Positions 23,908 to 54,242 of a stretch of 64,000 nucleotides of DNA are shown here, in pieces. This DNA comes from a virus. The stretch's first letter is position 1; every line of letters begins with the position of its first letter. The position numbers and the translations under genes were made by a program. The stretch lies in the IMG/VR virus record IMGVR_UViG_3300014208_000033, positions 32,001-96,000 of that record; one strand, 5' to 3'. The notes under the pieces are model-generated. The model had not been told where the DNA came from. It saw nothing but the letters and a program-made list of their open reading frames with translations, and ran no database searches.

Positions 23908-25056
23908 TTACATTGTTCTGATGGTTCCGTCAGTTGCTACACCAATGAGAGCACCTTTAGTAAGTTCATAAGTTCCAGTACCCCAAGTAACAGGAACAAA
24001 TCCAGATTCGATCATCTGGTGTCGTTCAGGACCACTACCAAACAAAACACAGGGGGTAGTTAGGTTGTTCTTCATAAAAGAAGAAAAAGCTTCAAAATTC
24101 TTAATTAAGTGCCCACCCCACTTGGAATAAACCCTAAATCCATCAATCTTTTCAATCATATCAGTTTTAGTGAAGCAAAGACCTGTGACTCCAGCCAACT
24201 CAATGACATACTTCAACTCTTCAATATCCAACCACCCAAGCACCATCGGTCGATTATTTGGATCACCGTATTCGTACTCCATTCCAATAGTACGAATAGT
24301 TTCAATTGTCTTACTAAATTCAACTGGTCGGCCCATTCGACCTGCACCAGTACGGGTGTTATATATCTTGCTAATTCCAAGAATCTCAAGATCACGAAGT
24401 TCTTGCCTCATACCAAATGAAGTAAGAACATTGGCAGGCATTGTTCGTTGACTAACAAAAGGATAATCACCGTGAACAAGATCAAGCTGAACACTCTGAG
24501 AACCTTCAAAGAGAACTCGTTTACCGTTGGAAATGAGATCATTAACAAGATCGAAAGTATTTACAATGAACACACCTTCAATAGAACTAAGAGTTTCATT
24601 TCCAAGAACAGTCATAGCAGTTCGATTAGCTCGTCGTGCAGCGGCGGGGCCAATACCTTTACCAGTAGTTAAAAGGCCGTCGTTAGGATGATCAGCCTTG
24701 ATATCTTCATCGGTAATTACGATACACTTCTTATCGATGTAGAGATCAAACTTCACATCAGGATTAGTCTTACGAACGTAATCAATCTCGATTTCGAGAG
24801 TCTTGGGATTTACATAGCACTCAGGTCCAATGATGCACATCTTACCAGAAGCACAACCAGAAGGAAGGTGATTAAGTTCAAGCCGAATCTTATCATTGAT
24901 CTTGATTCCGTGTCCAGCATTAGGACCACCGGTAAATCGAACAACTGCATCGTAGTTCTTGTTAGAAGCAAGATAGTCAATAACTTTACCCTTGCCTTCG
25001 TCTCCATGTGTAATACCAACGACACAGAGGCATTGACGATCAAACATCTTCTTCAC
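23908..25056 (-). CDS. purA: Adenylosuccinate synthetase-like protein (divergent PurA)
   Basis: GDEGKGK, GGPNAGH, TTGKGIGP, EGSQ..LD..HGDYPFV, TKTD, GPER. Confidence 0.85.
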   Translation of the reverse strand: MKKMFDRQCLCVVGITHGDEGKGKVIDYLASNKNYDAVVRFTGGPNAGHGIKINDKIRLELNHLPSGCASGKMCIIGPECYVNPKTLEIEIDYVRKTNPDVKFDLYIDKKCIVITDEDIKADHPNDGLLTTGKGIGPAAARRANRTAMTVLGNETLSSIEGVFIVNTFDLVNDLISNGKRVLFEGSQSVQLDLVHGDYPFVSQRTMPANVLTSFGMRQELRDLEILGISKIYNTRTGAGRMGRPVEFSKTIETIRTIGMEYEYGDPNNRPMVLGWLDIEELKYVIELAGVTGLCFTKTDMIEKIDGFRVYSKWGGHLIKNFEAFSSFMKNNLTTPCVLFGSGPERHQMIESGFVPVTWGTGTYELTKGALIGVATDGTIRTM

Positions 25057-25308: not shown

Positions 25309-25499
25309 TGTTCTCACCGGCTAGAGTTTCTTACTCTAGTTCTTCCAAACTTTCATAGCTTAAAGATTACTGTTGGGCTACCCATGCAATTTCGCGGTAA
25401 TGGGTTAGTTGAGTGGAACGCCTAGTTCTCAACTATTACAGAATCTTTAACTGAAAGACTAATGGCTGTTTTAGACTCATGAAACTAACGGTGAGAACA
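25309..25499 (-). ncRNA. ~190-nt structured RNA (6S-like or novel), copy 1
   Basis: 11-bp closing stem TGTTCTCACCG/CGGTGAGAACA, nested CTTTCA/TGAAAG and TTAAAGATT/AATCTTTAA stems, two apical hairpins; follows tRNA-Ser. Confidence 0.7.
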
Positions 25500-25512: not shown

Positions 25513-25600
25513 TGGCGGATGCTGTAGGATTTGAACCCACGAATGGTTTCCCATTGCCGCATTTCAAGTGCGGTGCCATCAGCCGCTCGGCCAAGCATCC
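25513..25600 (-). tRNA. tRNA-Ser(UGA)
   Basis: CCGCA-CTTGAAA-TGCGG arm, long variable arm, GCCA end. Confidence 0.95.
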
Positions 25601-25603
25601 AGT

Positions 25604-25678
25604 TGGAGCCGACGATTGGATTTGAACCAACAACTTACTGATTACAAATCAGTTACGCTACCGTTGCGTCACGCCGGC
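25604..25678 (-). tRNA. tRNA-Thr(UGU)
   Basis: ACTGA-TTTGTAA-TCAGT arm, CCA end. Confidence 0.95.
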
Positions 25679-49484: not shown

Positions 49485-49787
49485 TGGTCCCGGCTCCCGA
49501 ATTCGAATCGGGACGGTTGTTTAGACCGAGGGATTTTCTTACCACTATGATTTTCATCACCGCAAGACTCTTGCGTTTGTGGTCTGGACTATACCTTCAC
49601 CCTAATATTAGGGGCGAGCCGTCTAGTCTCTACACATTCCCATTACTTTACAGTAATGGTTAGCTCGGTGTTACCTCGAATTTTATCAGGGGGTTCACCG
49701 AATTTGACTCGATTCACTCTTAGAATTACTTCTAAGGTGCTCAAAATAAATCAAGTCCCCTGCGTCTACCAATTTCGCCAAGCCGGG
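49485..49787 (-). tRNA. trnL: tRNA-Leu(UAA) split by a group I intron (exons 49753-49787 and 49485-49537)
   Basis: CCCGGCT/AGCCGGG acceptor stem, spliced anticodon arm GGGGA-CTTAAAA-TCCCT, CCA end. Confidence 0.92.
49538..49752 (-). mobile_element. ORF-less group I intron (IC3, trnL-type), 215 nt
   Basis: Inserted at U^AA; P AAATTCGGTGAA, Q AACACCGAGC, R GTAGAGACTAGACGG, S GAAGGTATAGTCC; terminal G. Confidence 0.9.
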
Positions 49788-49792
49788 ATAAA

Positions 49793-50263
49793 TCACTTAA
49801 TTAGCTTACCATTTCTACGATAAACTCTCTTCTCTTTAGGGTAAGAAGGTTGAACTGGTAATCTTTTGGTTTTTCCATACTGAACAGAAGAAGAGTATTT
49901 TCCAGAACAAGAATGAGAACAAAAAGGACCAGCTTTTCCCATCTTAGAATTATGTGTTAAAGAACCTGCTTTTTTGTATGCTTTCTTTTTACACCAAGCA
50001 CAGATTATTTCAATCTTATCTACAGTAACAGCATCTAAAGTAGCATGCTTCTTTCTAGTCATTAACTTTAGATTACTAGATTTGTTATTCTTAAAGTTTT
50101 CATCATCATGATGAACAGTTATATTGAAATCTCTTAGTTCTCTCTTCAATTTCTGTTCCATTAAATACTTAGGATATGAAACAGTTCTTCGTGTTTTATC
50201 ATCATAGATGATAATTACATGTTTTCTTCCGTCTTTTCTAAGATATGGCCCGTATACTTTCAT
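49793..50263 (-). CDS. Free-standing HNH homing endonuclease
   Basis: VHHDDENFKNN..SNL....H motif plus CAWC...FCSHSC zinc finger. Confidence 0.85.
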   Translation of the reverse strand: MKVYGPYLRKDGRKHVIIIYDDKTRRTVSYPKYLMEQKLKRELRDFNITVHHDDENFKNNKSSNLKLMTRKKHATLDAVTVDKIEIICAWCKKKAYKKAGSLTHNSKMGKAGPFCSHSCSGKYSSSVQYGKTKRLPVQPSYPKEKRVYRRNGKLIK

Positions 50264-50301
50264 CTTGATCTTCCTGTGTCTACCAATTCCACCAATTCGC
50301 C
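50264..50301 (-). pseudogene. Orphan 5' half of a tRNA-Leu-like gene fused to the HNH start
   Basis: GGCGAATTGGTGGAATTGGTAGACACAGGAAGATCAAG then ATG; no matching 3' half seen. Confidence 0.6.
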
Positions 50302-50316
50302 ACGTTTAGAACTAAG

Positions 50317-50501
50317 TTGTTTGCACTAGCTAGAATTTTCATCTAGCGAAGTAGGTTTCCTTTGAATAATCTACTGTAGTTTAATAGCCAATAACGGCTC
50401 CCTTTAATGTAAATAATTAAAGGGTTACAAATCATTCAAGAGCTAGTTCACATCTAGCCTACTTCTTAACTAGCCTCCCCGTAACCGGATAGTGCAAACA
50501 A
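50317..50501 (-). ncRNA. ~185-nt structured RNA, copy 2
   Basis: 12-bp closing stem TTGTTTGCACTA/TAGTGCAAACAA, GAAGTAGG/CCTACTTC, TTGAATGATTT/AGATTATTCAA, two apical hairpins; follows tRNA-Lys. Confidence 0.7.
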
Positions 50502-50516
50502 GAATTGAATTAGGTA

Positions 50517-50587
50517 TGGGTCCGGCGGAAATCGAATCCGCATCAAAAGATTAAAAATCTTCTCGTCTACCATTGACATACGGACCC
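50517..50587 (-). tRNA. tRNA-Lys(UUU), CCA not encoded
   Basis: GGGTCCG/CGGACCC acceptor stem; GAAGA-TTTTTAA-TCTTT arm. Confidence 0.9.
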
Positions 50588-50686
50588 ACGATAACTAACT
50601 AGATTTCTTTAATCCCCCTTTAATCTCATTTACCCTTCCTCCTGGTAGCAGAGCTACCAGGAGGCATCTCCGATCCTTACATGTAT

Positions 50687-50715
50687 ATTATACCATGCGC
50701 GTCAATTGTAGTCAA
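50687..50715 (-). promoter_or_regulatory. Strong sigma70-type promoter for the tRNA-Lys unit
   Basis: TTGACT-17 bp-TATAAT with extended TG. Confidence 0.8.
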
Positions 50716-50981: not shown

Positions 50982-53900
50982 TTAACCACACTTACTCCAA
51001 CCACATTTGGTACATTTCATACAACCTTCGGTTACTGTAGCATCAGCTTTACACTCAGGGCACTTAGGCTTGTCTGCATTGACAACATACTGAGAGAGAC
51101 AGTTAGCTATGTTCACAGGAACCGAAAGCAATGACTGATTACGAACTGAAGTAAGCTGCTTGACGATCAACTCAGGTGAAACATTATGCCTTAACGCAAG
51201 AGAGGAGAGGCGACAGAGAGCTTCAGTTAGAACAAGTATTTCGCCTGTTGCTGTAGATGGAACTGAGAAAACTTCAACGGGTTTATCGTTATGCTTGTTC
51301 ACGGTGATATAGAGTTTACCTTCGGTGGTTCTGACTTTGTAAGTGTCACCCGAAAGAACATGTGGGCGCTCGTTCAGATTTTTCGGAATCTCGGTAGCGC
51401 CGGTCGAGAGCACTTGACCCTTGCGAGAGCCGTCACGATAAACAGTTGTGCCCTTACAGTGAAGATCGTTGGCTAACATGAATGCTTTAGCTACGTCATC
51501 TTCGGTTGCAGAGTTCAATAAATTTGTGGTTTTACTCACCCCAAGATTAGTGAATTCTTGGAAGGCTGCTTGCATTTTAACATGCTGCTCCCAGGGTACT
51601 TGATTAGCTGTGACGAAGAGTTCAGCTTCATTAGAAAGTAGATACTTTGTGTCTACACCGTTCTTGAATGTATAGTCATAGATTTCATCTTTAGTGGCCG
51701 AAGTCTGCATCTCTTCAACTAACTTCTGGAACAACGGATGAATTTCATTCATCTCTTGATCTGCTTGACGACGCTTCATCACATACGCAAAGTTAGGCTC
51801 GATACCGGAACTGCAACCGGCGATGATAGAGAGTGTGCCAGTCGGTGCTATTGCGGTAACGGTTTGGTTCTGGTAATTCCTCAATACCCCGTAGTTAGTA
51901 GCTTCAGTGTTGATGAAGCTCATAAGGTCTTTAGCTACAGAGAGAGCGTGAGGGCTATTGTAGTTAATGCCAAGCTTGATGAGAGCATCAGCCCAGCCCA
52001 TTATACCAAGGCCGACCTTACGGTTTTTCTTGCAGATAGTTTCAATTTTCTTGAGAGGATATTTGTTCTTGTCAATCATGCGGTTGAGGAAATCAATTGC
52101 CGTATGAATGACTTTCTCCAGTTTGTCTTTATTGAAAGGTCTGTCTTTAAGTATTCGGCCTTCTACATCAACGAAATTAGATACATTAATTGAGCCCAAG
52201 CAACAGGCTTCATAAGGCAGTAGAGGAGACTCGCCGCAGTTGCCAGTAACAAAACCATCCAGGACCAACGTGTTAAACTCAATTCCTGTTGCACAGTACA
52301 CGTCCTCATACTTACCTGTATCTGTGATCGATTCGATAGTGTCTTTGTAACCGCTCTTATCTTGGGTTTTTTCAGTGAGAGTCTTAGCAAAGACCGAGCG
52401 CATTAAGTTAAGGTCTTTTTGGAAGAAACTGATATTCTTGAGCCATGTATGAATAGGTCGTCCAGGTCCAATGAATAAGTCATGTGAATCTGAAGCTATG
52501 GTAACTCCAGAGATTTGTTTCTTGTTATAGCAGGCGGGTTTAATCTCGCCAAAGACTCCCATGCAAAGGAGTCTCTTCTGAATGTCTTTCAATAAACTGA
52601 GTGACTTGAAGTTAGTGAGCCAGAAGCAGTTCTTCCGCTTAAAGACATTTCCATTTACCTTGAAGAGCATCTGGAAAAATCCGCGAAGAACGCTTATCTC
52701 ACAGTTCCAAAGTATCTCAGGTAACTTCGTATCAGTGATAGGATTTACCTTGAGAACACTGAACAAGAAATCAGTTATCTCAGCAGAGTAGAAACCGTTC
52801 TTGTATGGATGAGTCCTAGGACGATAGATATTAGCGTACAGTAACTCATCAAATGCCGAGTCTTTCTTAGCGAGATTAGAGTCACAGAACTTAGAATGAA
52901 CATACTGTAACCCTTTGAGTAATGATCGATAGGTTGAAGCAAACTCTGACTTACGAATCTTCTTAACGTCAACAGTGAATGTCAACTCACCAGCATCATT
53001 CTTTCTGAACCACAAATTAGGCTGAGTGTAGAGTGAAGCTAAGAAATGACCGAACTTGAGATTGTTCTTAGAATCTTCATTATCAAGTCGATGAGGCTTA
53101 ACCCCCATCGGAGTATCAGTAGTGTAGATCATAAGCATCTCACCAACTGATAACTCTTCTAACTTCTTCTCAGAGTATGAGAATGTTCTTCTATCGCTTT
53201 TAGTTGTCTCATTAGTCTGCTTCACAGTGAAGAACTTATGATACTCAGTAGCCTCAATCTCAAGACCTGACTTCATCGTGATCTTATATATCGGAGCATT
53301 CTCCGCTGTCCGTCTAACCTTAGTGATGTTATGATGGTGATTATTATCAGTGACTCTCTTATCCATTATAGCTGAGTAAATACTGTACGGATAGCTAGGT
53401 CCAGCAGCATCCTTCATAGTAGGACAGTGACCTGGGAACATTATCCTCGTAGACCCAACAACGCAAGGATTGGTGCTCTCGATTTTACCTTGCTCTGGTG
53501 TCGGGTTATGACGGTTGATCTCATCTAAGAATATAAGGCCGGGCTCACCGTTGAGCCAAGCGTTCTTTACGATTTTTCTGAATATCTCCTTTGCGGGAAG
53601 AGTCTGAACGACTTCACCGTTCTTCGGATTGATAAGCTCCCATGGGAGATCATTCTTAACAGCGTTCATGAACTTATCTGAAACACCAACTGATATGTTA
53701 AAGTTGTTTAATGACTTCTCATTAGTCTTACAATCAATGAATTCCAAAACGTCAGGGTGACTCACTTCGAGGATGCCCATTAAAGCCCCCCGGCGCACCC
53801 CCCCTTGCTTGCAAACGTCCGTTATGGTGTTGAACACCTGCATGAACGTGACTGGCCCTGAACTTATTCCATTTGTCGAGTGGACCTTATCATTTCTCGG

Positions 53901-54242
53901 TCGTAACTTACTGAAGTTAATACCAACTCCACCACCTGATTTGAATATCAAAGCACATTCTTTAGCTGTATCAAATATGCTAGCCATCGAATCTTCAATT
54001 GGCATAACATAACATGCGAATAGGTTTCCTAACTTAGTCCCTGCTCCGGTGAAGGTGACTGAATTTGGCAAGAAATCTAATTCATTCATGATAGTAAAGA
54101 ACTTCTGCTTCTCTTCGTCAGTGTCACCTAAGAAGTTGGCAACTCGCTTAAAAAGCATCTCAGGTGTTTCAATGATATTTCCGTTACCATCACGAAGAAG
54201 GTAACGCTTCTCAAGCACTTTTATAGCATTATCGGAAAGCAT
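50982..54242 (-). CDS. nrdJ: Class II (B12-dependent) ribonucleotide reductase with an intein
   Basis: LEKRYL, FLPNS, GGGVG, RRGA, NPC|...|CGE, APTGT, KG.TVYRDGSR; no small-subunit gene in the window. Confidence 0.9.
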   Translation of the reverse strand: MLSDNAIKVLEKRYLLRDGNGNIIETPEMLFKRVANFLGDTDEEKQKFFTIMNELDFLPNSVTFTGAGTKLGNLFACYVMPIEDSMASIFDTAKECALIFKSGGGVGINFSKLRPRNDKVHSTNGISSGPVTFMQVFNTITDVCKQGGVRRGALMGILEVSHPDVLEFIDCKTNEKSLNNFNISVGVSDKFMNAVKNDLPWELINPKNGEVVQTLPAKEIFRKIVKNAWLNGEPGLIFLDEINRHNPTPEQGKIESTNPCVVGSTRIMFPGHCPTMKDAAGPSYPYSIYSAIMDKRVTDNNHHHNITKVRRTAENAPIYKITMKSGLEIEATEYHKFFTVKQTNETTKSDRRTFSYSEKKLEELSVGEMLMIYTTDTPMGVKPHRLDNEDSKNNLKFGHFLASLYTQPNLWFRKNDAGELTFTVDVKKIRKSEFASTYRSLLKGLQYVHSKFCDSNLAKKDSAFDELLYANIYRPRTHPYKNGFYSAEITDFLFSVLKVNPITDTKLPEILWNCEISVLRGFFQMLFKVNGNVFKRKNCFWLTNFKSLSLLKDIQKRLLCMGVFGEIKPACYNKKQISGVTIASDSHDLFIGPGRPIHTWLKNISFFQKDLNLMRSVFAKTLTEKTQDKSGYKDTIESITDTGKYEDVYCATGIEFNTLVLDGFVTGNCGESPLLPYEACCLGSINVSNFVDVEGRILKDRPFNKDKLEKVIHTAIDFLNRMIDKNKYPLKKIETICKKNRKVGLGIMGWADALIKLGINYNSPHALSVAKDLMSFINTEATNYGVLRNYQNQTVTAIAPTGTLSIIAGCSSGIEPNFAYVMKRRQADQEMNEIHPLFQKLVEEMQTSATKDEIYDYTFKNGVDTKYLLSNEAELFVTANQVPWEQHVKMQAAFQEFTNLGVSKTTNLLNSATEDDVAKAFMLANDLHCKGTTVYRDGSRKGQVLSTGATEIPKNLNERPHVLSGDTYKVRTTEGKLYITVNKHNDKPVEVFSVPSTATGEILVLTEALCRLSSLALRHNVSPELIVKQLTSVRNQSLLSVPVNIANCLSQYVVNADKPKCPECKADATVTEGCMKCTKCGWSKCG
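52239..53465 (-). mobile_element. Intein (about 409 aa) in the RNR active-site NPCGE motif, with a LAGLIDADG-like region
   Basis: Starts CVVGST, has block B ATEYHKF, ends DVYC...VTGN followed by Cys. Confidence 0.9.

Follow-up and report, generated by a model that had tools for sequence, protein, structure and literature searches.

A tRNA-linked, branched and end-closed structured RNA, present in two diverged copies in an IMG/VR virus contig

A segment of 185 nt lying directly behind a tRNA-Lys gene (copy 2 in Table 1) is very probably a selected RNA structure. The window in which it was found, that is, the whole stretch of 64,000 nt that was analysed, corresponds to bases 32001–96000 of a 107,668-bp virus contig of IMG/VR with a completeness estimate of 71%. 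A diverged paralogue (copy 1) is present in the same window, again behind a tRNA gene, and an orthologue of copy 1 occurs on a metagenome contig. Copy 2 is probably the gene for a branched, end-closed non-coding RNA of about 185 nt, of the kind encoded by phages T4 and T5, which would be cotranscribed with tRNA, excised by tRNA nucleases and kept stable by the clamp of its closing stem, P1. The family is new and absent from Rfam; the kind has long been known from T4 and T5.

A reading made beforehand from the DNA letters (the sequence-only reading) had placed the start of the RNA just 3′ of tRNA-Lys, and the position holds: it lies 14–15 nt behind the tRNA, with the RNA counted from 50501 and P1 from 50500. 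The MFE of copy 2 is −62.5 kcal/mol (z = −5.47), and none of 200 shuffled sequences folds as well. The helices of the modelled structure are listed in Table 1. The tetranucleotide CTAG occurs six times within the 185 nt, where about 0.4 occurrences are expected (Poisson P about 4e-6). As the CUAG blocks are self-complementary and repeated, several alternative pairings are possible in copy 2, including that of GGCUAGUU with AACUAGCU. Two further features of the sequence may be recorded here. The P3a region (GCUAGAUG-UGAA-CUAGCU, 50443–50461) nearly duplicates that of P7 (GCUAGAUG-AAAAUU-CUAGCU, 50329–50348), and the CTAG density of copy 2 is the joint maximum of the genome, an equal site being located near contig base 2900.

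Table 1. Positions of the two RNA copies, the helices of copy 2 and the neighbouring elements, numbered from the first base of the window.
Feature	Position	Strand	Remarks
Copy 2 structured RNA	50317–50501	−	185 nt; fold, covariance model, pair counts
P1 closing stem, copy 2	50490–50500 with 50318–50328	−	11 bp
P2 hairpin, copy 2	50478–50489	−	
P3, copy 2	50458–50465 with 50348–50355	−	
P3a hairpin, copy 2	50443–50457	−	
P4b, copy 2	50431–50439 with 50362–50370	−	
P4a, copy 2	50427–50430 with 50374–50377	−	
P5 hairpin, copy 2	50400–50424	−	
P6 hairpin, copy 2	50386–50399	−	
P7 hairpin, copy 2	50329–50347	−	
Sigma-70-like promoter	50687–50715	−	TTGACT, 17 nt, TG-TATAAT; 11/12 consensus matches (consensus match alone)
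tRNA-Lys(UUU)	50516–50588	−	Rfam tRNA 66.1 bits; no encoded CCA
AU-rich linker	50502–50515	−	14 nt, between tRNA-Lys and P1
Spacer	50304–50316	−	13 nt, RNA 3′ end to tRNA-Leu remnant
tRNA-Leu(CAA)-like 5′ half	50264–50303	−	aligned to window tRNA-Leu and T4 tRNA-Leu
HNH homing-endonuclease-like ORF	49793–50263	−	156 aa; phrog_14913 E 7e-20; weak HNH_3 match
tRNA-Leu(UAA) with group I intron	49485–49787	−	RF00028 58.9 bits; ARAGORN with intron option
Copy 1 paralogue	25309–25499	−	191 nt; 13 nt behind tRNA-Ser(UGA)
tRNA-Ser(UGA)	25513–25600	−	directly upstream of copy 1
tRNA-Thr	25604–25678	−	just upstream of tRNA-Ser(UGA)

Copy 1 was located with the pattern TGTTCTCACCG. Its folding z-score is −5.68, again with none of 200 shuffles folding as well. 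The two copies have a common architecture: they consist of an 11-bp P1, a long arm that leads to a three-way junction with two apical hairpins, and the hairpin P7. One seven-helix model can be threaded through both of them, at −50.3 and −48.8 kcal/mol. The closing stems are as the sequence-only reading had given them (UGUUUGCACUA/UAGUGCAAACA in copy 2 and UGUUCUCACCG/CGGUGAGAACA in copy 1), and the four pair changes that it had called fully compensatory are indeed two-sided, the other seven pairs of P1 being invariant. The 3′ hairpin was likewise found in both copies, with the stem CUAGA/UCUAG and an A-rich, GAAA-bearing loop of 7 nt (UGAAAAU in copy 2, UAAGAAA in copy 1) directly before the 3′ strand of P1, as were the inner helix GAUU(C)UGUAA...ACAGUA and the two apical hairpins that it had described. 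The 18-base pattern of the 3′ motif has two occurrences in the window, against an expectation of 0.00.

With copy 2 as the query, neither blastn (word size 7) nor nhmmer gives a match at copy 1, and a MAFFT alignment of the two copies joins their ends only. A covariance model, R1, was built from copy 2 alone with its modelled structure and was run over the whole window on both strands with the filters off. Apart from copy 2 itself, its best match is copy 1, which it covers from end to end with 27.6 bits and an E-value of 7e-6. The reverse strand of copy 2 follows with 23.4 bits, and no unrelated site in the 128 kb exceeds 14.2 bits. The claim that the two copies belong to one structured RNA class as diverged paralogues is thereby borne out, R1 detecting copy 1 where sequence-only searches fail. 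In the model-guided alignment of the two sequences, whose pair counts are biased towards the model because it was fitted to the structure (a bias from which the E-value of R1 is free), 98% of the cells are paired, and 18 of the 52 pairs are changed on both sides and still paired. These two-sided changes are distributed over P1 (four), P3 (five), P4b (three), P5 (five) and P6 (one), P7 being invariant; slid controls pair at only 32–46%. The strongest compensatory cases are P1 and P4b, where invariant neighbours fix the register, while the alignment of P2 and P3 is ambiguous between the copies, P2 of copy 1 being a weak 4-bp stem. Since the paralogues have kept the seven-helix fold and have lost almost all sequence identity, the shape itself appears to be under selection.

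It could be argued that two unrelated, hairpin-rich intergenic stretches resemble each other by chance, given that the likeness of sequence is limited to the ends and a few short blocks and that apparent compensatory changes are to be expected whenever two hairpins are aligned by their structure. This is hardly credible, and it is effectively refuted by the low E-value of the covariance model at exactly the predicted coordinates, by the 3′ motif, which is not expected even once in the window and which yields chance matches plus one true orthologue in IMG/VR, JGI and GTDB data, and by the placement of both copies behind a tRNA.

The true orthologue was recovered from the JGI metagenomes, where the 3′ motif has eight matches, only one of them genuine; another, L014, is a GC-rich chance match. 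The genuine match, positions 1194–1398 of contig Ga0066599_100061241 (L012), is the orthologue of copy 1, at 142 bits. The RNA lies directly behind a tRNA-Ser that is 100% identical to that of the window, and the upstream SLOG gene is 94% identical. The ORF downstream of the RNA diverges strongly after about 10 codons between L012 and the window, whereas the core of the RNA is identical. The tRNA cluster itself has been altered: at positions 727–1091 of L012, compared with 25601–25678 of the window, a quite different tRNA-Thr(UGU) replaces that of the window, and a small Cys-rich ORF is found between tRNA-Thr and tRNA-Ser. The change reads as a cassette-like exchange in a mosaic relative.

In a sequence-only alignment of copy 1 with L012, 5 of 100 paired positions differ, compared with 9 of 91 unpaired positions, and all three indels are in loops, one of them adding a UCCC-AAAA-GGGA hairpin at the position of P2. 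P6 reads ACCCAU/AUGGGU in copy 1 and ACCUAG/CUAGGU in L012, with all six pairs kept. The L012 sequence folds with a z-score of −7.13 and shows a clean four-way junction. Across the three sequences, which come from two phages and make up the family, 96.8% of the cells are paired and 20 of the 52 pairs are changed on both sides, in an alignment fitted to the model and as pair counts that are not formal covariation statistics. None of 500 shuffles reaches the three-sequence result, which sets the structural alignment clearly apart from shuffled controls, and RNAalifold, run on the three sequences, recovers the same helices.

Thermodynamics gives no choice of strand, because the plus strand folds about as well as the minus strand (plus-strand values of −57.1 and −61.7 kcal/mol). 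In the model of the minus strand there are five G-U pairs and one C-A; on the plus strand, the G-U pairs would turn into A-C mismatches. The tRNAs and the neighbouring genes share the minus strand with the RNA. The structured RNA is non-coding; no ORF of more than 37 aa overlaps either copy, and the indels between copy 1 and L012 have lengths that are not multiples of three. The equal folding of the strands would also be in keeping with an element selected for its symmetry in the DNA, such as a MITE-like mobile element or a palindrome for recombination or protein binding, as would the 11–12-bp terminal inverted repeat that P1 represents, the strong enrichment of CTAG palindromes in copy 2 and the mosaic character of the neighbourhood between relatives. 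Such an element is nevertheless very unlikely. The ratio of five G-U pairs to one C-A on the minus strand speaks against it, as does the fact that the interiors have moved beyond detection by blastn and have yet kept seven helices, unlike copies of mobile DNA; moreover, flanking direct repeats are not seen at either copy, and there are two copies only in 107 kb, which cannot be aligned by blastn.

The promoter about 100 nt upstream of tRNA-Lys is, judging by its match to the consensus, the likely start of a transcript that would carry both tRNA-Lys and the RNA. A weaker promoter precedes tRNA-Thr upstream of copy 1 and is conserved in L012. The leader of about 95 nt between the promoter and tRNA-Lys contains a 12-bp hairpin, CCUCCUGGUAGC-UCU-GCUACCAGGAGG (50636–50666, minus strand), without a U tract. 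The AU-rich linkers between tRNA and RNA both end in UUC before UUGUU (AAUUUUC-UUGUU and CAAUUC-UUGUU), and the linker is presumed to be a zone of nuclease cleavage. There is no terminator behind either copy.

Beyond its 3′ end, copy 2 is followed by the 5′ half of a tRNA-Leu(CAA)-like gene. This remnant keeps the acceptor strand, the D arm UGGUGGAAUUGGUAGACAC and the anticodon stem and loop, and it ends exactly at the start of the HNH ORF; for its 3′ half, no matching acceptor strand was found. Together, the truncated tRNA-Leu and the HNH ORF have the look of a scar left by a homing endonuclease that inserted into a tRNA gene, an arrangement that has parallels in segB of T4 and in hegC/hegD of T5. 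Five nucleotides beyond the HNH gene lies the intact tRNA-Leu(UAA), which was missed by the default ARAGORN run and which carries a group I intron of 215 nt in the anticodon loop, between U34 and A35. The split is at the position of the tRNA-Leu intron of cyanobacteria and plastids. A group I intron in a tRNA-Leu is unusual for a phage and may be a hint at the host.

Since the tRNA-Leu 5′ half lies 13 nt downstream, copy 2 was once located between two tRNA genes, and a free RNA released through the processing of tRNA ends is therefore favoured over an mRNA leader. In the mechanism that we propose, transcription would begin at the strong promoter upstream of tRNA-Lys and would yield a multi-gene precursor that includes the tRNAs. 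The host nucleases of tRNA maturation would then cut the short AU-rich linkers in the manner of RNase E, and the downstream tRNA-Leu would originally have been a site for RNase P. The 11-bp P1 would clamp both ends, allowing the RNA to persist as a stable small RNA, in which P7, stacked on P1, would form a conserved scaffold and the long arm P3–P6 the variable part. The product would be the counterpart of the small stable RNAs from the tRNA clusters of T4 and T5.

Alternatively, the fold could remain on the downstream mRNA after tRNA cleavage and act there in cis as a 5′ leader, whether as a stabiliser, as an insulator of processing or as an element that controls the translation of the next ORF. 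Each copy is followed by an ORF, with no terminator in between: the HNH start codon lies 55 nt after copy 2, and the 3′ end of copy 1 lies about 20 nt before the RBS and start codon of an 82-aa ORF, at a junction that is conserved in L012 (21 of 22 nt) where the body of the ORF diverges. Even so, a leader seems rather unlikely, because the downstream ORFs, an 82-aa protein without known family and an HNH endonuclease, are unrelated, because copy 2 was originally followed by a tRNA-Leu gene and not by an mRNA, and because a seven-helix fold of 190 nt far exceeds the needs of a 5′ stabiliser. Because the two downstream genes are unrelated, a riboswitch or a leader dedicated to a single gene was rejected as well.

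Since the 1970s, phages have been known to encode small stable RNAs next to their tRNA genes. In T4, rnaD and rnaC, annotated as ‘small, stable RNA’, are located directly behind tRNA-Arg and beside segB, and SegB cuts tRNA genes (PMC2330249). There are two of these RNAs per genome, rnaC (species 1, 139 nt) and rnaD (species 2, 119 nt), and like those described here they are adjacent to tRNA genes, are without an assigned function and have a homing endonuclease nearby in the cluster. In contrast to P7 of our RNAs, with its loops UGAAAAU and UAAGAAA, rnaC has a canonical tRNA T arm (CCGGG-UUCGAAU-CCCGG), and rnaD, unlike copies 1 and 2, folds no better than its shuffles (z = −0.83).

The tRNA region of T5 (NC_005859), which has two HNH genes, contains RNAIII, RNAI, RNA1, RNA2H, RNAIV, RNA2 and RNA3. 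Six of them bear the annotation ‘stable RNA with unknown functions’, and RNA3 bears that of a ‘putative tRNA-like RNA’. RNA2H (172 nt), RNAIII and RNAIV form end-closed, multi-branch folds with a terminal stem of 10–12 bp, as do our RNAs; they are also similar in size (100–170 nt), in lying directly behind tRNAs on the same strand and in having HNH genes in the cluster, but differ in the number and arrangement of the arms. Moreover, the RNAs of T5 are stable species according to the annotation of the record, whereas ours are known here from their sequence. The likeness to the RNAs of T4 and T5 is one of layout only, because neither region contains a significant match to the family model R2: in the T4 region (8 kb) the best match of R2 is on rnaC, with 10.6 bits and an E-value of 0.056, which is not significant, and in the T5 region nothing scores above 9.6 bits, that match being on tRNA-Val. 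The stable RNAs of T4 and T5 have no Rfam family of their own.

The RNAs of the T5 RNA1/RNA2 type are shaped like tRNA-Leu but have no anticodon. They are linked to tRNA genes and borne by a phage, as ours are, and the two share a constant closed scaffold, composed of an end stem and a 3′-proximal hairpin with a 7-nt loop, with a variable insert. However, RNA1 keeps the D arm of tRNA-Leu (GGAAUUGGUAGAC) and a T loop of the UUCAACU type, neither of which is present in our RNAs, and P1 of copies 1 and 2 has 11 bp compared with the 7 bp of a tRNA acceptor stem. The helices P1, P2, P3 and P7 come together in a four-way junction in the MFE structure of L012 and in the fold of copy 2, which may be a cloverleaf-like arrangement with the variable arm in the place of an anticodon arm; in copy 1, P2 is weak and the alignment of P2 and P3 ambiguous. 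Both P7 loops would fit the U-N-N-R-A pattern of T loops. Something of a long shot is a scaffold of tRNA topology, either independent of the anticodon-less phage RNAs or diverged from them, in which P1 and P7 would mimic the stack of acceptor stem and T arm and P3–P6 would be exchangeable cargo; it might serve as a decoy or an adaptor, either for an enzyme of the host that binds tRNA or for a defence nuclease that targets tRNA. If this were true, many phages would use tRNA-shaped chassis RNAs for a non-decoding job. As to function in general, our best guess is a protein-binding or decoy scaffold during infection.

The same junction might instead be a fossil, left by a decayed and functionless tRNA gene whose anticodon arm carried a large insert or intron. 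In copy 1 and L012 the topology, with 3/2/5/1 nt between the helices, does recall a tRNA, and both an intron-bearing and a truncated tRNA-Leu occur in the cluster. A fossil is highly improbable all the same: the Rfam tRNA model (RF00005) has no match inside either copy even at E 10, the D-loop GG, the UUCRA T loop and the 7-bp acceptor stem are missing, and compensatory change maintains the pairing in the paralogues and in the orthologue, which is not expected of a dead gene.

A number of other RNAs were considered and rejected. A 6S RNA would be of similar length (about 185 nt) and, like copy 2, would have paired ends; however, the fold found here is branched, with a four-way and a three-way junction, and is not a rod with a central bubble, nor is there a match to 6S RNA in Rfam. 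No tmRNA was found by ARAGORN. In the Alu domain of SRP RNA, UGUAA lies between the two hairpins, whereas here, as the sequence reads, it precedes both. The pRNA of phi29 gives no Rfam match and belongs to the wrong kind of phage. A Y RNA (YrlA) is not supported, as the 107-kb contig (71% complete) has no TROVE or RtcB gene and Rfam gives no match; an RNA linked to RtcB fails for want of an RtcB gene in the contig, and a retron msr/msd or other RT-linked RNA for want of an RVT_1 match in it. A display of the codon of the neighbouring tRNA in a loop was judged by eye and dismissed: P7 of copy 2 does contain AAA, but the UCA of copy 1 is lost in L012. Loop–loop kisses between P2 and P7 or between P5 and P7, likewise judged by eye, were discarded as well, the complementarity not being kept in L012.

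A gathering scan of the window with Rfam 15 returned tRNAs and the group I intron only. At E ≤ 1, in a search of the 20–64 kb part of the window, nothing fell on either copy; at E ≤ 10, copy 1 alone has no match, and the best match of copy 2 alone is rli49, with 17 bits on the opposite strand (gathering score 40). The earlier suggestion of a possible new ncRNA family therefore stands in so far as there is no Rfam match even at E 10, but it has to be qualified with regard to the kind, which is old, as seen from the annotated small stable RNAs of T4 and T5.

Further members of the family were sought in several collections. The rest of the contig contains no third copy, and both copies, compared by blastn (‘distant’) with 50,697 phage records, gave no match. 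In a scan of IMG/VR with the 18-base 3′ motif, the three matches were all due to chance, as were the five obtained from GTDB genomes (two of them in cyanobacterial MAGs), all five of which were rejected by R2. IMG/VR was also searched with the PurA-like protein, the RNR and the SLOG protein as anchors, and no close relative was found. The relatives of the DNA polymerase led to 80 loci, with identities of at most 29%, and R2 finds nothing over the approximately 1 Mb that they comprise. In the nearest of these relatives (L024), ORFs follow the tRNA genes directly with no RNA between; the same is the case for the window phage's own tRNA-Arg, behind which an ORF follows directly.

In the part of the window from 20 to 60 kb, almost every gene is on the minus strand; among the products encoded there are an RNR, a family-B DNA polymerase, helicases, a primase and a PurA-like enzyme. 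A search of 5.8 billion proteins gave 13 relatives of the DNA polymerase at E ≤ 1e-30, with a top identity of 47%, and its top match in the 50,697 phage records is 25% identical. By these comparisons, the phage lineage is almost unsampled. The RNAs described here form a clean new family of still unexplained tRNA-linked phage RNAs from a lineage of this sort. Taken together with the other tRNA-linked RNAs of phages, they support the view of tRNA clusters as general launch pads for structured RNAs. In practical terms, a defined model (R2) and two defined targets are now available for RNA-seq, probing and pull-down.

Two of the neighbouring genes deserve a short description. The PurA/PurZ-like homologue of adenylosuccinate synthetase (phrog_1211; 23908–25056, minus strand), downstream of copy 1, has one relative, on a 31-kb contig (P0001), that is 94% identical, and all others are at most 43% identical. 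The large subunit of the RNR (50982–54242, minus strand) has 1086 aa, of which PHROG matches cover two separate parts, residues 7–264 and 664–940; this suggests an inserted element such as an intein.
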